In this document: positions 31,204-63,600 of the stretch, one piece after another
Position numbering within the stretch: position 1 is the first letter of the stretch
Layout of the letters: each line of letters opens with the position of its first letter
NCBI GenBank assembly: GCA_942492635.1
Contig: CALOFP010000001.1
Location: forward strand, 799,039-863,038
Direction: 5' to 3'
DNA from: an uncultured bacterium
Lineage (GTDB): Bacteria > UBP6 > UBA1177 > CALOFP01
Length of the DNA: 64,000 bases
The notes under the pieces: generated by a model
The model's input: the letters and a program-made list of their open reading frames with translations, nothing else
What the model was told of the DNA's origin: nothing
Databases searched by the model: none
Translations under genes and position numbers: made by a program

Positions 31204-35857
<4,654 letters not shown>

Positions 35858-52290: not shown

Positions 52291-52460
52291 ATCGCTGCTC
52301 TAAAAAAGGGGTCTTCTCCAGAATCTGTGGGTCTAAGTTAAGAAATTCAGCTTAAAGCTAGCAAGATTTTGAAGATAATTTTGAAAATTTACGCATCCTC
52401 AATATCTTTTTAATCACGACAAAAAAAAGGAGTGAGGATGCGCCTTAAAACAATACTAAA

Positions 52461-52673
52461 TCAAAGCTTACAATTCAATAAATTCATAATAGATGAAGCA
52501 AAATTTTCTTGATTGTAATTGACGACTTCATCTGTTTCGCTGTTTGTTCTGCTCTTGAGGTTGCCGCTGAGGGTGTATTCGTAGGAATTCCCATATTTGG
52601 TCAACCTGTCATGACTGTCGTAAGTTATTTCACTTGCAGGGATACTCTTTGCGGAATCGGATGATTCATACAA
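52461..52673 (-). pseudogene. orphan rhs fragment (about 180-bp, roughly 95%-identical duplicate of an internal segment of the RHS gene at 54478-54660)
   Basis: The nucleotide identity to 54478-54660 is directly visible, with a 6-nt and a 3-nt indel. The encoded peptide (SSDSAKSIPASEITYDSHDRLTKYG...TLSGNLKSRTNSETDEVVNY) then diverges and terminates. Confidence 0.7.
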
Positions 52674-52749
52674 AATGGATTATCCATTATCCCAAAGCAT
52701 GTGTCATATTTATAGATCTTCAACTTAATAACATCAAACCCATACAACT

Positions 52750-53448
52750 TTAAACAAAAGTAATTAAAGCTGTAAAAACCAATATTAAAAGGAAAGAAAA
52801 TCCAAAAAGGTAGCTCCAAGTCTTTTTTTTGCGACTAATTTTCATAAGATTCAGTAAAGTAAAAAGAGAACTGTAAAAATAAATTAAAGGTAATACCACT
52901 ATTACAGTCGTAAAGAACAGCTGGGAAAAAATAATGACATTGTAGTCATCTAAAGTAAGAAACGAATTCTTCAACACATATAGGGCGAGCCCTGAAAGCA
53001 AGAAAAAAATTGCAGCCTTAAAGTTCTTTTTAAACAAACAAATCCATTTTAAAACATCATCACTACTATTTCCCATTGAATTAATAAAATAGCTTTTACC
53101 TGCGTAAAGAAAAATGGGAACGACAATAATCATGGAATTGCTAACTATCGTCTGAAACAGACTAAAAAAAACGGTTAAATAGTACTTGTTTATATAGCAA
53201 AAAGAAAGAAGGAGACAAATGAAAGATATTGGCCAATTTTTTCTTGCTTTCGAATTTAATTGAGAATCAACATTCAAAATACCGGCAAATGCAAAACCAG
53301 CCACATAAACTATAAAAATCAAAAGATTTTTTATCAACGCATTACTAACAAAAAACAATAGTACACGACCTGTTCTCAGCTCAGAAAAAAATGTTATCAT
53401 CAATGCAAAAACAATTAAATGGCAAGCAAAATATTTTACAATATTCAT
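52750..53448 (-). CDS. polytopic membrane protein, candidate immunity protein for the RHS toxin
   Basis: It has about 6 predicted TM helices and lies immediately downstream of the RHS toxin gene, overlapping it. AT-rich codon usage is typical of rhs toxin/immunity tips. Confidence 0.5.
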   Translation of the reverse strand: MNIVKYFACHLIVFALMITFFSELRTGRVLLFFVSNALIKNLLIFIVYVAGFAFAGILNVDSQLNSKARKNWPISFICLLLSFCYINKYYLTVFFSLFQTIVSNSMIIVVPIFLYAGKSYFINSMGNSSDDVLKWICLFKKNFKAAIFFLLSGLALYVLKNSFLTLDDYNVIIFSQLFFTTVIVVLPLIYFYSSLFTLLNLMKISRKKKTWSYLFGFSFLLILVFTALITFV

Positions 53449-53458
53449 AGTTTTCCTA

Positions 53459-56400
53459 TTACTCAACTATCAATGTACCCAGTTTCTTAATATCCGTATT
53501 ATCTGTCTTGCGAAAGAACATTTTCCTCCACCAAGGCTGAAAATTGTCGGAAACTGTATCTGTTTTAGTGTTGTTCAACATATCTCTTAAACCAATCCAT
53601 TCATCATTTTTCGTTGCGGCTATGCACCCTGTAGTACGACCGGGTTTGTGCAATCTAAAATGATCCCTTCCTGTTGGACCATGAATGTCGTCTCTAGGAC
53701 TGTTATCAATGAAATCCAATCTAAAAAAGTCTGGATTAGGATGGTAAAGAATCTCATATTCTCCTTTAGGTATTGGATCACCGTAGGGCTTACCACCAGA
53801 TTCAACACTGATTTCAAAATGTTCTCCGGTATCTGTATCGGTAGCGGATAAAACACCGGCTTCAGAGTTATAAAGAATTTCCACAACTAATCCTCTCGTA
53901 TCCACAAAATTCACCGGATCATTGCCGCAATACTCATAAAGATTCAACGTCCCACCTTTGAACCTTATCGGATCTTTTGCTGTCCATCTTCCGGTTTCTG
54001 GGTCGTAATCTCTTGCTCCGAAACGAACGAGGCCGGTATCCTTATCGTGCAGGCCTCCGGCGAAGCCGAATTCGATGTCGAATGTGCCTGTTTCGCTCGC
54101 AATTTTTCCGAATGTGTCGTAGTCAATTCTCTTTTTAACATCACCTGTGGATGATTCCACTACCATTCGGACACTTCCGATATGGTCTGAGATAACCAGG
54201 TACTTTTTCCATCCGCTTGAGGTGTTTTTCATGATGTAATCCGGAACATTCTTTTTGGATGCATAGACATAGTATTCAACCAGATTGTTCGACGCATCGA
54301 GTTTTGCAACAGGGTTGAGGCTGTCTTTATAAAGGAATTTGTATTCCCAGATATAACTAGGCTCTCCAATTCTTTTGACAAGTTTTCCTATTCTCCTGTT
54401 TCTTCCGTCAACAATATACTCGATTTTTTTAGTTTCGGAAACACCGTCACCAATATTTACTTCAAGTAGATTACCGAATTGATCGTAGTGGTAGTTGACG
54501 ACTTCATCTGTTTCGCTGTTTGTCCTGCTCTTGAGGTTGCCGCTGAGGGTGTATTCGTAGGAATATTTCCCATATTTGGTCAACCTGTCATGGCTGTCGT
54601 AAGTTATTTCACTTGCAGGGACACTCTTTGCGGAATCGGATGATGTAAAGGATGTTCTGTTGCCCTGTTTGTCATAAGTGTATGTTTCAATTACTGAGTT
54701 GTTTTTACTGACCTCTATAATTCTTCCTGCATCATCGTATTCGTAGCTCTTTGTTACTGCCGGTGCATCCTTTATTTTTTCTTCAAGAGTGGTGATTCTT
54801 CCGAGATAATCCCTGTGGTAGAATTCTTCACCAATTTGGCCATTGTATTTTACATTGAAGTAATCAACGGCACCGTATTTGGAAGTGACCTCTTTTATTT
54901 CGCCATATTTATTGTAGGTGTAAACTTTTTTAGATTTCACTGTGTTTCCTGTGACATTTTTTACCACACTGATGAGTGAAGTGTTCGGTTCATACTCAAA
55001 TTTGATATCCTCAACTCCAGAAACAATTCCATAATCATCAATCGCAATATCAACACCTTTGAAGGACAGTTTAGTAGGCTCCATAAAATCGTTATACGTC
55101 ATGGATACCGCACCCCAGGTGCTGCTGTTTACTTTCAAGCTTTCACTACTTAAAAGTGATCCGTCGTAAGTGTAGTTCAGCGTGGCCACATCGCTTTCAT
55201 CGCCTCTTTCTATGGTTCTTTTCATACTTTCGAGTTTTCCTAAAGCGGAACTCGAGCTATGATAACCATATTCCACTTTTCCATTGCTGCCGATCCTCAC
55301 TTCTCTCAACTTACCGTCTCCGTTGGTAGCGGTTCCGGAATCACAGGAGTTATCCCAGCAGTATTCAATTTTCTCAACGCCACTATCAGACGGGATTTCA
55401 ACAGAAGTTACCCGAAGATCCTTATTGAGACCGTAGGTTGTTTTAAGGTTTCCCGCTAAAACACCTCCAACTGAAGGCGGCTGGTAGTACTGTTCCGTAT
55501 CATAAGGATCGTAATTGAATTCGTGACGCTCATTTTTCGGAGTTGTTATGGACACCATGTTTCCGTCGGCATCGTAATCGAACAGAACGTCTCTGTCACC
55601 GGGAAGAGTAGCTGCCAGAGGTCTTCCGATGTTGTCCCAATCTGTGAAAGATGTTGTTACAGACTTTGCTGAATTAACTTGCACCTTAACTGCCTGTAGA
55701 TAGCCTCTTCCATTGTAGGAATACTCTGTCAGTCTTGATCCCTGAGTTATTTTGTGAATCTTTCCCGAAGCCGCACCGTTTCCAGCTCCATTGTATTCAT
55801 ATTTAACGGGATTGAATGTGGTTCCTGCACCGAAACCGGCTTCTATCACCCGACCTACGCCGTTAAGTACTTGGTAGTTTTTAATATTTCCGTGTGCGGC
55901 ACTTTTCTCAACGGATATCTTTCTGTCTGATCTTGTGTAGGTATTTATGATTTTTCTGACAGAGTCCAAAGACTGAAGATCAGCAACAGGTGCCGCCCCA
56001 CCGACAAAATATGTTGTGGTTGTCAATGAATCAAAGTCCATCATCGCTTCAGAATCTTTGAAAAGGATCGGAACGCCACCTTCCCTTTCTTCTTTCACTA
56101 TTTTTTGGTAGGTGTGTGAGCCGGTTTGGTACAAAGTTTTGTCAATACTTGGCTTCGCCGGTCCAAAAACTGAACTCGGAATGGAGTGCTGTTCTAATTT
56201 AGTGCCATCGCTTTTTACCACCTTTGAGTACATTCCATTCATCGATTCAGCAAACTCATTTGTCCCGTCTGGCTTTATCACAACTGCTTTTTTACTTATC
56301 CCTCCTTCAGAAAAGTATTTTGTATTCACTCTTCCCTGAGGTGAAGTCTCCTGAATTTTCATTGCAACCCTGACAGATTCCTGGAGAAAATTTGAAGGAG

Positions 56401-59400
56401 CTGATTTAAATACAGAGACTCCGTCCTCATCTTCCACCGTTTCGGAATTTATATTAAAAGTTCCGCCATTCGGGTATTTAATTTCATTTAAACCTCCTCG
56501 TGAATTGTACTCGAAATCATAAGAATGTTTTGGAGTTGACTTAGATGCTATCAGTCCTTTCGGAAGATCACTTTCTTCATGGTATTGGAACGCGTATCGC
56601 TCTTCTCCGTTTGATATACTTTTTGCATAACCTTCTTGATCTAAAAGAATTGTTACAGAATGACCACCAGGAGTAGAAAATACTACTGAATTTCCAGATC
56701 TATTTATATTCGTAACACGTCCACCGAAACAACTTTGATCGTTTCCTGAACACTCTTTTATCTGTGATAGAAACCCATTGTCATCATACTGGAAGAGATA
56801 AACGGGATGTCCGGTCAAAGCGTTAACTGTTTTCATGTGCTTTCCATCTTTACTGAATGTATAGATGTGATCTCCCTGTGCAGATGGTACTTTAGTTTTA
56901 AAAAGATTTGACTGCACCTTGAGAATCCTTGCTGTACCCCACCAGTTACCACTATTGTCTGAAATTGCATTTTCAGCGACATATAAAGAGCCATCTGCTC
57001 CAAAATCTATTCCCGAAGGCATTGTTATGTCAAAATCTCTGGGATGACGCATATCATTTGCTTTTACTTCCGAATATAAATGATTGAAAGCATCATCTCC
57101 CAATCGATATTTCTCAGTACCTGTTCCCAGAACTATCTCTATTATGCTATCCTTATTACCACCAGGAATTTTACGAACAACGTTACTAACTTCATTTACC
57201 ACACCCTGCTCTTTTTTCAACCAACTTACACTATCTGACATGTAGAGATTATCATCTTCATCAAACACAAGTTTATCAGGAGCAATTAACAGCGCTTCTC
57301 GTGCAGGTACTCCATCACCCTGATAAACTGTTTTTGCCATTAATCCAGGTTTGCCGGCGACTATTTCAGAAATATAAAGACCATCGGAAAAAGGATGCTT
57401 CACCAATTTTTTTACACAGTAATCGGTTGTTGAGCTGTAGTAGAGCTCCCCTTTGCTGTTGAAGGTAATTCCGAGCATCCTGTCGGACGTTTCGAAAATT
57501 TGATCACAAATGCCTTTTCCTTCACTGTTAAAAGCCAGGCGACATATTCTGTTTTTCTGTACAGATGCTTCTGTAAAATAAACGCTATTATCCAATTTGT
57601 TATATGTAATGGCATCTATAGGATTGAATCCGTACATTGGGGTACTGTAAACCAGTTCCGCATTGCCCGATTCTGATGAAATATCGTATCTGTATATCCT
57701 GGCAGAACTATTTCTAGTTTCATTTCCCACTCTATCCGCCATACTCCTTAAAATATAAATATTATTATCTTTGGTAATAGCGATACTTCCTATTGTATCA
57801 GCTGTAAAGTTCGGTCTATTTGAAGGAAGTCCTGACATATTTTCCAACTCCCACAGAGTCTTTACTTCCTTCGTCTCAGCATCCATTACTTTAAGATAAC
57901 CGGCCTGCACCGTAAGTGCTGTAAAAAACAGATCTCCATTCTGATGAAAATCAATATCAGGTGGGTTACCATGACCATGTGCAATAGTGAGAACCATATC
58001 TCGATTCAAATTCGACTTCCCGCATCCCTCTGTAATTACTCCTGTACGTTTGTCATATACTTTTTGCACATTAAGAGCAAATCCCCCCAATCCAAAGGCA
58101 TCTTTGTGTCTGATTTTTCCGGCATTTGAACTCCAACTTCTGGATGCTCTATATTCATGTTTTTCATTACTGTTATCTGGATTTTTAATATAGTAAATGT
58201 ATTCTACCCGGACATTTACAGGCTGGGCTCCCTGTAATTCTCGATTATACTGATCTTTAGGACTCAAGGTTATGTTGTACTTCATACCCGGAGACAAAGT
58301 ATGCTCAATGTCTTTAGATAGGGCTCCCGAAACAACGCTAATTGTCTCTATACAGTCACAATCGCTTCTGTCTTTACAGGTTTCTTCACATGAATTCCCA
58401 ATCCAGCAAAATTCACTTCCCGAATTACAAAAAGCTCTGCTACTTGATCTTTCTGCATAAGTCGTAGTTACGATCACACCTACGAGCTCATCAGAGATCG
58501 CACCTTCATTCAGTATAGGAACACTCAACACTTCTTCGTTTCTTCCTATAGCTCCTCTATTTGAATAAGAAAGAGAAAACGGAGTTCCTGGGATATCAAC
58601 AACATCACACAATTCTTCTTCTGAAGTTATGTAGGGTTGCGGAGGTGACGGGATATCCGGGAGTACCAAAGGAGTCGGATTGTTTCTTGCAAAAGACCTC
58701 GAGCGATTTTCCGAGAAAAATTTTCCGCTATTTCTTACTCCGAAAGCCCCAAATTTATCGATCGGAATTCTTATAAGATTTAAAGACTCGTCAGGAGCTT
58801 CCGAATAGTATATTTGATGTAAGTTGTCTTTCTCTTCTTCCGAGAGTGTGAAATCACTTGATCTAACATCTACTTCAATACCTGATCCATTTCTTCTGAT
58901 TTCAATCGCTACACCTTCTTCAGACTGCTCCCACCTGTTTTCTTTCTCATTATAAAATTCAACACTGAGTGCATGTCCTACAGGTATATTCTTGTAGTTT
59001 TCCATGTAAACAGCGACAGGAGTACCATCGATCCGCAACTCTTTTTCAGACGTATTTTCTTCACTTACATTTATTATGTAACTGAAATTTTTCCCCTCTG
59101 CTGACCCCGGAGAATATGAAGTTATATTTTCATTTGTGCCCGCCGAATATTCTGTTGCACTAACAACAATAGAGTTCTCATAGTCAATATTCTCAACACT
59201 GGTATTCCTGTCATAAAAATAAGGTAATGAATCGGAAGCAAAAAGAAGAAGTGGAGCTCTCTCCGCTGTACCTTCTCCCAAAGATGTGGATTTGTGATAC
59301 TGCCATTTTCCAGGAACGATACCGAAATCCTTGATCTCTGTAGTTTTCGCATCCTTTTTCACAAGAATCAACTCTCCAATTTTGTTGTCTTTCTGCCAAC

Positions 59401-59995
59401 CTACATTAACTGTTCTCTGTGATGTAAGGTAACCGTTTTTCCTGAATTCTAACGTATATGTGCCACCATTTATTACCATCTCATATTTTCCATTACTTTT
59501 TTGTGTTGAAGTGAGACCGTATTCAGGATGGTTGTATATAGAAATTGCAGGTGTTACTGAAGGAATTATTTCGTCTCCATTGGTTTCATAAACATTTCCA
59601 AACAAGAGAGCAATCCTTTCGTCTTTGAGCAGATCAGGATTCACACCACTTTGAACTGGATTGTCCCCGGTAAAAAGATGAGAAACCAGCATTTTCATTG
59701 TTGTTGGAATAGTCTGGTCAAATTGAGCAACATCTCCTCCAGCGGGAACAGTTAATGAAAGAGTGGAAAAATTGGTAGTCAAATCGTTTTCAGTCGCCTG
59801 TTTAATATCAAAAGCTCTTACTGCAAGATCGTAACTATGATCCGGCAATAGCGATTTTATGCTGTAATAGCATAATCCAGCAGAACAGACATCTTCGTCA
59901 TATACTGTTTTTAGAAGATCCCCATCCACATATATTTCATATTTCCATATAAAAGAATCATCTAGTGCCTGATTCCAGTCAACGACCACCCCCAA
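53459..59995 (-). CDS. RHS/YD-repeat polymorphic toxin (2178 aa) with transthyretin-like and NHL-like N-terminal regions, and an L,D-transpeptidase-like (Tlde1-like) C-terminal toxin domain
   Basis: It contains many YD repeats (YDADGNMVSI, YTYDKQGNRTSF, YEYDDAGRIIEV and others) and the RHS core end motif (GNDPVNFVDTRGL). The 145-aa C-terminal tip that follows contains IHGPTGRDHFRLHKPGRTTGCIAA. The annotated start is a TTG abutting the IS200 end, so the ORF is open up to the IS and the N-terminus is probably truncated. Confidence 0.85.
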   Translation of the reverse strand: MGVVVDWNQALDDSFIWKYEIYVDGDLLKTVYDEDVCSAGLCYYSIKSLLPDHSYDLAVRAFDIKQATENDLTTNFSTLSLTVPAGGDVAQFDQTIPTTMKMLVSHLFTGDNPVQSGVNPDLLKDERIALLFGNVYETNGDEIIPSVTPAISIYNHPEYGLTSTQKSNGKYEMVINGGTYTLEFRKNGYLTSQRTVNVGWQKDNKIGELILVKKDAKTTEIKDFGIVPGKWQYHKSTSLGEGTAERAPLLLFASDSLPYFYDRNTSVENIDYENSIVVSATEYSAGTNENITSYSPGSAEGKNFSYIINVSEENTSEKELRIDGTPVAVYMENYKNIPVGHALSVEFYNEKENRWEQSEEGVAIEIRRNGSGIEVDVRSSDFTLSEEEKDNLHQIYYSEAPDESLNLIRIPIDKFGAFGVRNSGKFFSENRSRSFARNNPTPLVLPDIPSPPQPYITSEEELCDVVDIPGTPFSLSYSNRGAIGRNEEVLSVPILNEGAISDELVGVIVTTTYAERSSSRAFCNSGSEFCWIGNSCEETCKDRSDCDCIETISVVSGALSKDIEHTLSPGMKYNITLSPKDQYNRELQGAQPVNVRVEYIYYIKNPDNSNEKHEYRASRSWSSNAGKIRHKDAFGLGGFALNVQKVYDKRTGVITEGCGKSNLNRDMVLTIAHGHGNPPDIDFHQNGDLFFTALTVQAGYLKVMDAETKEVKTLWELENMSGLPSNRPNFTADTIGSIAITKDNNIYILRSMADRVGNETRNSSARIYRYDISSESGNAELVYSTPMYGFNPIDAITYNKLDNSVYFTEASVQKNRICRLAFNSEGKGICDQIFETSDRMLGITFNSKGELYYSSTTDYCVKKLVKHPFSDGLYISEIVAGKPGLMAKTVYQGDGVPAREALLIAPDKLVFDEDDNLYMSDSVSWLKKEQGVVNEVSNVVRKIPGGNKDSIIEIVLGTGTEKYRLGDDAFNHLYSEVKANDMRHPRDFDITMPSGIDFGADGSLYVAENAISDNSGNWWGTARILKVQSNLFKTKVPSAQGDHIYTFSKDGKHMKTVNALTGHPVYLFQYDDNGFLSQIKECSGNDQSCFGGRVTNINRSGNSVVFSTPGGHSVTILLDQEGYAKSISNGEERYAFQYHEESDLPKGLIASKSTPKHSYDFEYNSRGGLNEIKYPNGGTFNINSETVEDEDGVSVFKSAPSNFLQESVRVAMKIQETSPQGRVNTKYFSEGGISKKAVVIKPDGTNEFAESMNGMYSKVVKSDGTKLEQHSIPSSVFGPAKPSIDKTLYQTGSHTYQKIVKEEREGGVPILFKDSEAMMDFDSLTTTTYFVGGAAPVADLQSLDSVRKIINTYTRSDRKISVEKSAAHGNIKNYQVLNGVGRVIEAGFGAGTTFNPVKYEYNGAGNGAASGKIHKITQGSRLTEYSYNGRGYLQAVKVQVNSAKSVTTSFTDWDNIGRPLAATLPGDRDVLFDYDADGNMVSITTPKNERHEFNYDPYDTEQYYQPPSVGGVLAGNLKTTYGLNKDLRVTSVEIPSDSGVEKIEYCWDNSCDSGTATNGDGKLREVRIGSNGKVEYGYHSSSSALGKLESMKRTIERGDESDVATLNYTYDGSLLSSESLKVNSSTWGAVSMTYNDFMEPTKLSFKGVDIAIDDYGIVSGVEDIKFEYEPNTSLISVVKNVTGNTVKSKKVYTYNKYGEIKEVTSKYGAVDYFNVKYNGQIGEEFYHRDYLGRITTLEEKIKDAPAVTKSYEYDDAGRIIEVSKNNSVIETYTYDKQGNRTSFTSSDSAKSVPASEITYDSHDRLTKYGKYSYEYTLSGNLKSRTNSETDEVVNYHYDQFGNLLEVNIGDGVSETKKIEYIVDGRNRRIGKLVKRIGEPSYIWEYKFLYKDSLNPVAKLDASNNLVEYYVYASKKNVPDYIMKNTSSGWKKYLVISDHIGSVRMVVESSTGDVKKRIDYDTFGKIASETGTFDIEFGFAGGLHDKDTGLVRFGARDYDPETGRWTAKDPIRFKGGTLNLYEYCGNDPVNFVDTRGLVVEILYNSEAGVLSATDTDTGEHFEISVESGGKPYGDPIPKGEYEILYHPNPDFFRLDFIDNSPRDDIHGPTGRDHFRLHKPGRTTGCIAATKNDEWIGLRDMLNNTKTDTVSDNFQPWWRKMFFRKTDNTDIKKLGTLIVE

Positions 59996-59997
59996 AG

Positions 59998-60605
59998 GAG
60001 GTGGCTTGGGATTTGCCCCTAAAAGGTGGCATGTTCTAATAAGTTTTCAATATAACCGCAGGATCTACCAATTATTTAGATTCTTTTTCCTGCTTTTCCT
60101 GATACTTTACATACTTGCGAATATTTTCCTCATCCAATCCAACTGTAGTTAAGCAATAACCTTTTGCCCAAAAATGCCTGCCCCAAAATCTTTTCCCAAG
60201 CCTTTCGAACTTGTTGAACAAACGGACTGCCAACTTGCCTTTCAGATATCCCATGAAATCTGAAATACAATATTTTGGTGGAATAGAAATTAGAAGGTGA
60301 ACATGATCTTCCTGAACGTTGAGTTCAATAATTTCTACCATATCTTTATAACTACAAAGTTTATATATCTCGGCCCTCACAAAAGCCTCAACATCTCCCC
60401 GAAGTATTTTGAAACGATACTTTGGAGTAAAAACTATATGATATTTGCATTCATAAACACTGTGTGATAACTTGCTTAACCTTGTCATTATGTACCTCCT
60501 CAAAAAGTGCCACCTTTTAGGGAGGTACATCATAATCATTTTTTTTCACAACCCCTAAAAACGCTATAAGCTTTTTAGCGGACTACTGCCATAGGCAGTA
60601 GATTA
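59998..60605 (-). mobile_element. IS200/IS605-family insertion sequence (tnpA only) with subterminal hairpins
   Basis: The tnpA gene is flanked by inverted CCCTAAAAGGTGGCA(C/T) sequences at about 60016-60032 and 60507-60522. Further hairpins lie at CCACCCCCAAAGGAGGTGG (59986-60004) and CTACTGCCATAGGCAGTAG (60582-60600). The boundaries are approximate. Confidence 0.75.
60072..60488 (-). CDS. tnpA: IS200/IS605 family transposase TnpA (HUH Y1)
   Basis: It has the HUH motif (HVHLL) and a catalytic Tyr region (GYCLTTVG). It is about 138 aa from the Met preceded by a GAGGAGG RBS. The track start at 60539 runs into the terminal hairpin. Confidence 0.85.
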   Translation of the reverse strand: MTRLSKLSHSVYECKYHIVFTPKYRFKILRGDVEAFVRAEIYKLCSYKDMVEIIELNVQEDHVHLLISIPPKYCISDFMGYLKGKLAVRLFNKFERLGKRFWGRHFWAKGYCLTTVGLDEENIRKYVKYQEKQEKESK

Positions 60606-60612
60606 AGTGAAT

Positions 60613-63600
60613 CTATTCAATCATAGCTCCGAAACTTTTGGGATCAGCGTGAATAGTAGCATCTGCCGGCCATGTTGGTGCGGAAGTGTCAGGAATAATT
60701 TTAAATTCAAAAAGTTCACTTGTTGTCGCAACTCTGTGTGGGTTATCTTCAGAAACAATTTTCCAAAAATATTTCTTGTTAGGTAAAAGGCCCTCTATTT
60801 CAAACTTTTTGTTCGCCCCTTCTTTCGCGCATAGTTTTATGTAAGAACCTGCCTGACCTGGATGCTCTAAAAGTTCTTCAGTACAAACTTCAACAAGTTT
60901 CATATTGTCGGGAGCATCTCCGAAATAAACTGAATAAACAATATTGTTTTCATCTGGATCGCCACCAGTCCACACCAAGCTGATCTTATCAGTCGTACCT
61001 GAAACAAAAGCTGCTCCATCACGGGGAAATATTGCCTCAGCTTTATGTGGAGCTTTGTTCGGCACACACATTCTAAGTGAAAGATCGATGTTATAACCCC
61101 TGATACAACTGCCTTTATCAGTCATACCATGATTCTCATTTATTTTCACACATCCATCTGTAGGATTGACTATCTCTTCCCCTGGTTTGCAATGACAACT
61201 GATCTGTTGCAATTCTGTTGAATAGAAACATACTGTGCCGGGATAGTATGAAGGACATGGATCATTCGGATAACAACTTGTTGGAACACAATTTCCTTTA
61301 CTGTCTAAAACAAATCCCTCTCGACATTCACATGCAGCATTTCCATAAATATCGAGTTTACAAAAAGAATGTGTTGGACAATCTTTCTGTTTGCAGGAGT
61401 TCTCAATACAAACAAATCCATCTGCTACGGCCCCCTTTTCACAACTACAGAAAGGATCCCCTGTAGTTTCATCGACTAAACATTTACCTGAGTTTCCACA
61501 TGAGATATTTGAGCAACTCTTTTTAGTGCAATTCCCATATGATCCCCATTTACCGTCGACACATTTTCTTTTCTTCATGTAACCAGGCTGGCAATATCTT
61601 GTTTCTATTTCAAAATTGCCATTTCTGCACTCATCACGGTCTATACAGTTACTCCATTGTTCCCATTTGCCTTTATTACAGCTCCTTGTTTTCTCTCCAT
61701 TCAAATTATGCCCACAAGCTATCTGCTCTATAGAACCTGTATTACACACACCCTCAACACATTTATCTGCTTCTCTTACAAAACCATTTTTACAAGTCCA
61801 ATCACAAAGCCCTGGTTTCTCCCATTCTGTCCCATTCCATTTTACTGTAACTTTTTTAACTATCGGAAGAGCATTAAGTGGGAAGTTATTTAAATCATCG
61901 TTACAATAGACACTCTTTGTTTCTGATCCAACACAAGCACCTTCGATTTTTTCAAATCCTTCATAACATTCCCAATCGCAAGTAGCAGCTTCATTCCATG
62001 CACCAGTACTTTCATTCCAAGTCACCTCGACATCAACCAATATCGAAGTGGCGTGTTCAGGCGCCTCGTTTTTACAGACCTCAGTTTTCGTTATTGAATT
62101 ATCGACACAACTACCATTTTCCTTGTGAAAACCATCTTCGCATTCCCACTTGCATTCTTCAGGCGTGCTCCACTTTATTCCATTCCATGTGGTAGTTACC
62201 TTACTTTTTATTAATGTTGCATGCTCAGGAAGATCTGGTTCTTTACAATCTTCCTGTCTTGTATTAGAAATACATTTTTTATAATCCTCTGTGTGATATC
62301 CGGATTTGCATCTCCAACTGCAGTTTCTTGGGGAACTCCATTTCGTACCATCCCAATAAACTTCTACATCTTTACTGTCGAGAGTTGCATTTGCAGGCGG
62401 ATTATTCGGACAAGAAACCTTTTTAGTATTCGAAACACATTTTGATGTGTTGGGATCTTTATGAAAACCATCATTACACTCGCAAACAGGCTGTCTTAAC
62501 AGATTAACTTTACATCTTGAATTTGAAGAACATGAATTGTTTCTACACACAACATCTTCACATTTACCTTTTATACAAGATCCTTGATAATAACATTCGC
62601 CTGGTTCACATCTCTTATGACAAGTTTCCAGAGTACCTTCATAGTTATCGTCACAGGAACAATTCGGTTCGCCTTCTTCACTTTTTATACAAAATCCATT
62701 AACAGAACAGTTTATAGTGTTGCATACATCAACACACTGCATATATCCTGAGTTAACATATCCTTTATTACATTTACAAACAGGTAGTTGACCGAATATT
62801 GATTTTTCAGGAACACATTTGCCGTTCCAGGAGCAAGAAAATCCTTCGCATTCGCCTCCACAGATATCATCTGGCTGTTCCCAACTATCTGCAGTAGAAT
62901 TTTCATTCATTGTGGTAACCCTGACCTCACAAGGAAAGTCACCACACTCACTGTTGTTTTCACATGGATTGACACATTCGAGATTATTTGCATCCAGAAA
63001 GTATCCGTCATTACATTTACAAGTTGCCTGTCCATTTTCAGATATACATTGTCCGTGACCGGAGCAGCTAACATTTATACATGGATCAGCGACACACTCC
63101 TCCCTTGACCAGACTTTGCCTGCAGGGCATTTGCTAACGCAATTAGGTCTATTTCCACTGTCGTACCTCAAAACAAATCCAGGGTCACAATCATATGAAA
63201 CAGAGGAAGAGCTTCCGTCATTAATACATTGACCATTTTCAATTTGAGCTGCATTTTTACATCTATCAACAACACAGTTTCCATTTATCTCAATATAACC
63301 GTCACTACAGCCACAGAATGATATCCCATTTTCGCTTTTACACTCATAGGCATTATTGTTGCTTCTACACTGATATGAACTACAACTCATGTGTTGTGGT
63401 TTGAAATCTCTGATCATCAATGGAGTATTCTGCAGTGTCAAACCTGTAGAGTATGAATATTTTTCAACTGTTTCTCCGATCGCAAAGTTTTCCAATGACT
63501 TGCTGAACAATAAAAACTGTCCAGGATTTGTGTATCCGGATGTTGTCTGATCTTGTGTGCCAAATTTAATCAGGTGTTGTGGACCAAATTTAAATATTGA

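Follow-up and report, generated by a model that had tools for sequence, protein, structure and literature searches.

We analyzed a 64-kb stretch of DNA from an uncultured bacterium (contig CALOFP010000001.1 of assembly GCA_942492635.1, positions 799,039 to 863,038), here called the window, and conclude that it probably contains the 3' end of a polymorphic-toxin locus, in which (i) a Tlde1-type domain forms the C-terminal tip of an Rhs protein, (ii) a membrane protein encoded downstream of the tip is the candidate for the cognate immunity protein, and (iii) the carrier gene of the toxin is split by an insertion sequence (IS). All features of the toxin locus lie on the minus strand, and their coordinates are listed in Table 1. 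A preliminary description of the same stretch had proposed such a tip and immunity gene; its observations are partly confirmed by our analysis, and its interpretation is partly supported, in that the central idea is correct but a number of details are not.

In its structural model, the tip has the YkuD beta-sandwich fold. The AlphaFold2 (AF2) model has a predicted local distance difference test (pLDDT) score of 81.8 and a predicted template modeling score of 0.79, and in a Foldseek search of the Protein Data Bank (PDB) with this model, 36 of the top 39 hits were YkuD-fold proteins, namely, L,D-transpeptidases, L,D-carboxypeptidases, and their relatives, including Tlde1a (PDB entries 7uo3 and 7uma). 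This structure check bears out the suggestion, made in the preliminary description, that the tip resembles YkuD and Tlde1 proteins. At the sequence level, the tip alone matches in Pfam only the Tlde1_dom family (PF10908), with an E value of 1.3e-4 and 22.8 bits, for a gathering score of 30.1. The same family is matched by 8 of 9 close relatives of the tip and by 37 of 40 diverse relatives (best E value, 3e-11), while YkuD is matched by 2 of these 40. Searches of the PDB by sequence returned little: a single-sequence phmmer search with the tip gave chance matches only (an O-glycopeptidase, E value of 0.028), a profile of 9 tip sequences gave no match, and a profile of 40 relatives, run against 177,635 PDB sequences, returned only Tlde1a, with a weak E value of 0.5. 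Taken together, these data assign the tip to the Tlde1/DUF2778 (Tox-LD-peptidase) superfamily, as part of a clade that has diverged.

A word-indexed homologue search with the tip retrieved 8 relatives of 45 to 57% identity, three of which carried precomputed PF10908 tags. The idea of a rare family that these 8 proteins suggested was overturned by an exhaustive profile search, which detected the tip domain in 453 clusters (50% identity) at an E value of ≤1e-3, 280 of them at ≤1e-10, and by a genome scan that yielded 34 loci in Myxococcota, Desulfobacterota, Bacteroidota, Beta- and Gammaproteobacteria, Chloroflexota, and others. An Rhs core-end motif of the DPxGL type stands directly before the tip in most of these 34 loci. 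Decayed copies of the toxin were also seen: in locus L035 the tip is cut off and followed by a transposase-like open reading frame (ORF) of 346 amino acids (aa), assigned without a Pfam check, with a gene for a protein with three transmembrane (TM) segments 1.3 kb downstream, and in locus L036 the tip has an in-frame stop.

The residues expected at the active site are conserved. In the alignment of 40 diverse relatives, L58, D62, D68, R79, H81, G88, and C89 of the tip are invariant, and H81, G88, and C89 remain so across 169 domain hits except in the repeat protein P0031 (essentially all of about 148 hits without this protein). The profile alignment of the tip with Tlde1a pairs R57 with R99, R75 with R115, H81 with H121, T86 with S128, T87 with H129, G88 with G130, and C89 with C131; R99, R115, H121, S128, G130, and C131 are named active-site residues of Tlde1a (PMC9638812). 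The conserved H, S/T, and C of Tox-LD-peptidase domains are present as H81, T/S86, and C89. The string quoted in the preliminary description, IHGPTGRDHFRLHKPGRTTGCIAA, was located at aa 2104 to 2127 (positions 53615 to 53686), as was its core-end motif (see below). Two of its readings of this string did not hold. First, it had seen a catalytic signature with an H-x14-17 spacing, but we assign the catalytic histidine to the invariant RLH motif (H2116, tip H81), 8 residues ahead of C2124, the corresponding spacing of H121 and C131 in Tlde1a being 10; the IHG and DH histidines of the tip vary among relatives. Second, it had taken the replacement of the second motif His by Thr to be a feature of Tlde1, but Tlde1a retains S128-H129-G130-C131 (PMC9638812), and the loss of this His is a trait of the clade to which the window tip belongs: at tip position 87, the equivalent of H129, the window has Thr, and about 150 domain hits have I, V, T, or L and never H. 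Moreover, the clade has an invariant Arg where Tlde1a has Y119, and the single Cys of the tip is the catalytic one, leaving it without counterparts of the two disulfides of Tlde1a (C37-C111 and C66-C86; PMC9638812). In Tlde1a, H129 positions the D-Ala4 carboxylate, and the variant H129A retains D-amino-acid exchange but loses much of the carboxypeptidase and cross-linking activity (PMC9638812). Since the clade lacks both the second His of the SHGC motif and the disulfides, its substrate positioning probably differs from that of Tlde1a.

In the proposed mechanism, Cys2124 as the nucleophile and His2116 as the general base would attack, in the periplasm of the target cell, the bond between meso-diaminopimelic acid (mDAP) at position 3 and D-Ala4 in the tetrapeptide stems of peptidoglycan. 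L,D-carboxypeptidase activity, D-amino-acid exchange, or both would then remove cross-link donors and weaken the wall. As an observation apart, protein P0031 (2240 aa; encoded outside the window) has 22 tandem matches to positions 35 to 90 of the tip profile, with Y-V-I and T-C-T in place of the R-L-H and G-C-I of the toxin, and looks like a series of half-domains with the tip fold that have become degenerate.

The Rhs-associated core (TIGR03696 of NCBIfam) stops exactly where the tip begins. It terminates as GNDPVNFVDTRG, followed by the L that opens the tip, and the motif GNDPVNFVDTRGL covers aa 2024 to 2036 (positions 53888 to 53926). The cleavage motif of the carrier, PVNFVDTRGL, is a variant of PxxxxDPxGL with DT instead of DP, and the variable tip follows immediately; autoproteolysis between the G and the L of this motif would free a toxin of 143 aa. 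The Rhs ORF, the core-end motif, and the quoted string of the preliminary description are thereby confirmed.

The gene downstream of the tip starts with an ATG 10 nt past the TAA stop of the toxin, and the spacer, TAGGAAAACT, contains AGGA, which resembles a Shine-Dalgarno sequence. As previously proposed, this ORF encodes a multi-TM protein in AT-rich DNA: its product has about 7 to 8 hydrophobic helices, and its GC content is 28.9%, where the rhs gene has 39 to 40% and the window as a whole 42.4%. A chance ORF was considered and rejected, since an open frame of 232 codons is too long at 29% GC (estimated chance probability, roughly 1e-8). A search of 5.8 billion proteins returned no homologue of the membrane protein other than itself, no Pfam or NCBIfam family matched it, and comparison with the membrane proteins of related loci gave BLASTP E values of ≥0.67 and hhalign probabilities below 1%. 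Its single-sequence AF2 model is poor (pLDDT, 54.7).

Because the membrane protein of the window has neither a homologue nor a family, we inspected the gene directly after the tip in related loci. A protein with at least two TM segments is encoded there in 26 of 32 loci, a lipoprotein-like protein in 2, and nothing clear in the remaining 4. The membrane proteins fall into two size classes, one of about 97 to 137 aa with mostly 2 to 4 predicted TM segments and one of 180 to 238 aa with 3 to 8, and into at least 8 groups that are mutually unrelated by BLAST; ten of the membrane protein or lipoprotein candidates from other loci had no Pfam match. The association of the clade with small polytopic membrane proteins, as seen in gene order and topology, is strong. 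One family of about 110 to 120 aa with 3 TM segments and an ER..A....(W/Y)KF motif directly follows the tip in loci L008, L012, L015, L021, L023, L026 to L029, L032, and L034, and several other unrelated families of small multi-TM proteins share this position; they look like undescribed immunity families of the clade. Since multi-TM genes hold the same position in most related loci, the earlier proposal that ORF 52750..53448 occupies the usual place of an immunity gene is credible, and by analogy its product may be the immunity protein of the toxin. Some immunity proteins for Rhs-borne LD-peptidase toxins are secreted or TM (Zhang et al. 2012, PMC3482391). The polytopic inner-membrane product of this AT-rich, translationally linked gene would most likely neutralize the toxin at the periplasmic face of the producer membrane.

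The toxin-bearing part of the carrier is an ORF of 2178 aa, counted from the first TTG. It has a teneurin-type TTR domain at aa 125 to 202 (Pfam TTR_TEN1-4, E value of 9.4e-10) and YD/RHS shell repeats (RHS_repeat, 9.9e-16, and TEN_YD-shell, 6e-30, in Pfam; YD_repeat_2x, 7.3e-18, in NCBIfam). Over about 2100 aa it is colinear, at 28% identity, with a protein of locus L010 from a Bacteroidetes metagenome-assembled genome; this homologue continues in a single frame for at least 233 aa more upstream as Ig-like repeats, and an 8-TM protein follows its tip. The 5' part of the carrier remains open to the edge of the window and contains many EGF-like Cys repeats and FN3-like modules, with weak Pfam matches to EGF, PhoD_N, and Pur_ac_phosph_N. 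Across positions 53459 to 64000 of the minus strand, the modules stand in a teneurin-like order, namely, Cys-rich EGF-like repeats, FN3-like modules, TTR, a propeller-like region, the YD shell, and the toxin. The first visible residues look like an endonuclease/exonuclease/phosphatase-like domain, and the true N terminus lies beyond the window. The carrier would be a very large Rhs/teneurin-like surface protein of more than 3300 aa.

Between the two parts lies an IS200-like element, which is absent from the preliminary description. Its tnpA gene (Pfam Y1_Tnp, E value of 4.9e-37) is on the same strand as the Rhs ORF and immediately upstream of it, and its subterminal hairpins are CTACTGCC-TAT-GGCAGTAG and CCACCTCC-TTT-GGGGGTGG. 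The upstream ORF ends 6 codons into the element, and the 2178-codon ORF begins inside its right hairpin, at about position 16 of 84 in the fn3 profile (weak match). We infer from this arrangement that a single teneurin-like gene of more than 3300 codons was split by the insertion. The insertion appears to be recent, since both halves of the gene are still ORFs. The element parts at least 1128 codons from the 2178 toxin-bearing codons, and the toxin polypeptide has no intact N-terminal trafficking region; because the IS separates the toxin part from the N-terminal part, export of the weapon has probably ceased in the present genome. As to the route by which an intact carrier would travel, the window contains no type VI secretion system (T6SS), PAAR, or VgrG genes, and PAAR was likewise not detected, at an E value of ≤1e-4, in Rhs carriers of relatives. 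We therefore find no support here for the T6SS route that the preliminary description had implied, and display on the surface by a Sec-dependent path of the WapA/teneurin type is equally possible.

Downstream of the membrane protein gene lies a relic copy of an internal rhs segment. The two copies, of 151 and 154 nt, are 97% identical, with 4 mismatches and one in-frame 3-nt indel; they are offset by 1976 to 1979 nt, and the similarity is lost abruptly at both ends. The repeat occurs twice in the window, and with 0 matches expected by chance, an origin by chance was rejected. A 180-bp duplicate had been noted here at 52478 to 52660 versus 54478 to 54660; its existence and its divergent ends are upheld, and its length, its coordinates, and the offset of 2000 nt that they imply are revised. 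The segment corresponds to Rhs aa 1785 to 1835, about 190 aa before the core end, and the relic ORF stops 17 codons past the end of the homology. Neither a core end nor an alternative tip nor a second immunity gene is present in the region of the relic, and beyond it follow a Thiamine_BP pseudogene fragment and AT-rich noncoding DNA. The relic does not qualify as a classic orphan rhs-CT/immunity module, since it consists of internal sequence only; true orphan modules, found downstream in loci L004, L008, L010, and L032, begin in the conserved core and carry tips. For the same reason the region is not the classic footprint of tip/immunity displacement that it had been taken for. The shortened Thiamine_BP gene (PF01910, MTH1187/YkoF-like; 52006 to 52224, minus strand) just past the relic fits gene decay. 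Directly after the stop of the relic ORF, a 10-bp inverted repeat with an internal T-run, GCATCCTCA...TGAGGATGC (52390 to 52440), may be a terminator or a recombination-associated hairpin; a simple terminator scan made no call there.

As direct repeats, the copies lie exactly on either side of a cassette of 3'-rhs, tip, and immunity candidate, and as read from the sequence they mark homologous recombination. They are probably the scar of an exchange or integration of the cassette, with the sequence that once followed the relic since deleted. The route to this scar allows two accounts. With a probability that falls somewhat short of even, the duplicate stems from a Campbell-type single-crossover integration of a circular cassette of 3'-rhs, tip, and immunity gene, or from a local tandem duplication followed by deletion: the exact flanking by the repeats, the relic without a core end or an alternative tip, and its contrast to the true orphans all accord with such an event. 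Displacement followed by deletion also leaves a homologous-recombination scar, and sequence alone cannot separate the two.

TABLE 1 Features of the toxin locus in the 64-kb window
Feature	Position	Strand	Basis or content
C-terminal toxin tip, 143 aa (aa 2036-2178)	53462..53890	-	Divergent Tlde1-like/YkuD-fold L,D-peptidase domain (predicted)
Catalytic motif R-L-H2116-K-P-G-R-T-T-G-C2124-I (tip H81, C89)	53621..53656	-	Conservation and profile alignment to Tlde1a
Rhs-associated core domain with cleavage-site motif PVNFVDTRGL (cut between G and L)	53888..54121	-	TIGR03696, E 1.6e-22, aa 1959-2036
3' part of Rhs/teneurin-like carrier gene, 2178 codons	53459..59995	-	FN3 (partial), TTR, beta-propeller-like region, YD shell, core, and tip
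Candidate immunity protein of 232 aa, polytopic membrane type, with translational link to toxin	52750..53448	-	Spacer, helices, synteny
Relic copy of internal rhs sequence, 151 nt (= aa 1785-1835), inside 70-codon ORF 52461..52673	52515..52665	-	97% identity to parent copy
Parent copy of duplicated segment, within intact rhs frame	54491..54644	-	Alignment of the two copies
IS200/IS605-type insertion, ends approximate (tnpA 60072..60539)	59990..60615	-	Y1_Tnp match and subterminal hairpins
5' part of carrier gene, at least 1128 codons, leaves window	60613..64000	-	Cys-rich EGF-like repeats and FN3-like domains

With regard to the target of the toxin, it is unlikely that the tip combines the same fold with a different substrate, one that is membrane-proximal or noncanonical rather than the stems of mature peptidoglycan, and that the membrane protein protects at the membrane. 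Candidates for such a target would be the stem peptide of lipid II, the Lpp-mDAP link (as for a DpaA-like amidase), and the tethers between outer membrane proteins (OMPs) and peptidoglycan. The consistent lack in the clade of the His that holds the D-Ala4 carboxylate in Tlde1a would suit this idea, although the other substrate-binding residues of Tlde1a, R99 and R115, are conserved. Likewise, the polytopic candidates in 26 of 32 loci are unlike Tldi1, a Sec-exported soluble DUF2195 protein (10.1101/2020.02.18.954545), but a toxin whose action is simply periplasmic would equally be expected to have TM or secreted immunity proteins (PMC3482391). Equally doubtful is the extension of this idea to the whole His-less clade (453 or more clusters at 50% identity, found nearly always on Rhs carriers, with small polytopic membrane proteins of unrelated kinds nearly always coming next), which would then be a functionally distinct toxin family with a membrane-associated substrate, such as the lipid II stem peptide or lipoprotein- or OMP-peptidoglycan tethers, and with immunity working inside the membrane. 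If true, this would give LD-peptidase effectors a membrane-associated target and an in-membrane mode of immunity, neither of which has so far been demonstrated for them.

That the membrane ORF is not the immunity gene of the toxin is quite improbable. It would then have been acquired as an unrelated AT-rich gene, or it would help in the export or release of the toxin, with the true immunity gene absent or elsewhere. Its lack of homologues, including among the post-tip membrane proteins of related loci, could be read in this way, but in Rhs and contact-dependent inhibition systems, the immunity gene is typically the part of the cassette that diverges fastest and is richest in AT. The poor AF2 model and the decay of the locus (IS200, IS21, and gene fragments) point in the same direction as the missing homologues; against them stand the short spacer with its Shine-Dalgarno-like sequence on the strand of the toxin and the multi-TM proteins at the same position in most related loci of many phyla. 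Finally, it is very improbable that the tip is no toxin but a relic without activity or a housekeeping module of the L,D-transpeptidase-like kind: the carrier gene is broken by an IS and the motif departs from the canonical SHGC, but all family-invariant residues are intact in the window copy, the place after the Rhs core cleavage site together with a linked small gene is the signature of polymorphic toxins, and housekeeping L,D-transpeptidases bear signal peptides and peptidoglycan-binding domains, not Rhs shells (PMC3482391).

The following points weigh against our reading of the locus as one of a Tlde1-type toxin on a split Rhs carrier with its immunity gene. (i) The window tip by itself stays under the Pfam gathering score, and its sole sequence-level link to the PDB, Tlde1a, is the match at an E value of 0.5 mentioned above. 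(ii) The canonical second His is missing from the tip, and the chemistry of the clade may differ, because Tlde1a H129A loses much of its carboxypeptidase and cross-linking activity; enzymatic activity is a prediction for every member of the clade. (iii) The immunity role is proposed from position and analogy, since homology between the membrane protein and other proteins could not be detected. (iv) There are no secretion-system genes in the window, and the N terminus of the carrier is beyond it. (v) A search for an uninterrupted allele across the IS junction gave only FN3-like repeat proteins that do not span the junction, which is why one gene split by the IS is something that we infer.

The remainder of the window is ordinary chromosomal DNA with genes for queuosine synthesis, an RseP-like protease, tetratricopeptide repeat proteins, a Wzz-like protein, and regulators. 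On the plus strand, 3.5 kb from the toxin locus, an IS21-type element that looks complete (with an IstA-like integrase and an IstB ATPase) occupies 46847 to 49155. At 49334 to 51098 on the minus strand, two paralogous small secreted proteins of 116 to 127 aa with an N-terminal ...FAGNLMADCS motif and no Pfam match are encoded, and the gene directly upstream of them specifies a trypsin-like serine protease that is also secreted (Trypsin_2, E value of 2.7e-18); the set may be a protease/inhibitor system or another toxin set. At 34184 to 35857 on the plus strand, a 557-aa protein with collagen triple-helix repeats (Pfam Collagen, E value of 1.3e-12) adjoins a 1011-aa protein without a Pfam match.

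With this locus, the Rhs-borne L,D-peptidase toxins gain a divergent member that is well supported, and the current understanding of them is not overturned. The locus also serves to define a sizeable uncharacterized clade that has no second motif His, no disulfides, and polytopic membrane immunity candidates without a Pfam family, and whose possibly altered peptidoglycan chemistry is testable. For annotation, the tip can be labeled a Tlde1-like/LD-peptidase toxin domain, ORF 52750..53448 a putative immunity gene, and the rhs gene recently IS-disrupted and probably nondeliverable.

Comparison with known systems shows where the window locus belongs. (i) With Tlde1a (STM14_0336 of Salmonella Typhimurium; PF10908; PDB 7UMA) it shares the short His-to-Cys spacing, the aligned residues R99, R115, H121, S128, G130, and C131, the context of an antibacterial effector, and an adjacent immunity gene (here a candidate). 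It differs in having Thr at the H129 position (Ile, Val, or Leu in relatives), an invariant Arg at the Y119 position, and no disulfides, in the fusion of the tip to an Rhs/teneurin-like carrier, whereas Tlde1a is a stand-alone T6SS cargo, in the absence of T6SS genes from the 64 kb around it, and in its polytopic membrane immunity candidate, the counterpart of which, Tldi1, is a Sec-exported soluble DUF2195 protein (10.1101/2020.02.18.954545). (ii) The Csd6 and Pgp2 L,D-carboxypeptidases (PDB 4XZZ and 6XJ7) are, unlike the window tip, housekeeping cell-shape enzymes and not toxins, with no immunity partner, and they differ from it in their extra NTF2-like domains, signal peptides, and canonical motif. 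(iii) Bacterial teneurin-like YD proteins and the Sec-dependent Rhs toxins of the Bacillus subtilis WapA type have in common with the window locus a large extracellular YD shell, TTR and propeller regions, a C-terminal toxin, and a downstream immunity gene (in the window, a candidate); the window carrier differs in that it is split by an IS200-like element and has its N terminus and export signal beyond the window. (iv) The L,D-peptidase toxin domains that RHS proteins carry, together with immunity genes linked to them, were defined as Tox-LD-peptidase in 2012 (Zhang, Aravind et al., PMC3482391), and Rhs-DUF2778 fusions are known mainly from the Tae7/Tlde1c family, in 11% of the genomes of that family (Sibinelli-Sousa et al. 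2020, 10.1101/2020.02.18.954545). As in these, the window locus has an RHS-repeat protein whose C terminus is an L,D-peptidase domain that conserves H, S/T, and C, and it has a linked downstream gene, the TM product of which matches the secreted or TM nature of some known immunity proteins. The described immunity families Imm16/DUF2750 and Imm57 were not found at the window locus, and the described Rhs-DUF2778 examples are proteobacterial and linked to PAAR/T6SS, whereas the window carrier is teneurin-like with EGF-like repeats. Apart from what is particular to it, namely, that the tip lacks the second His and the disulfides, that the polytopic immunity candidate is an orphan, that the carrier is teneurin-like, and that an IS disrupts the gene, the window locus is a further, divergent instance of the Rhs LD-peptidase toxins with TM immunity that have already been described.

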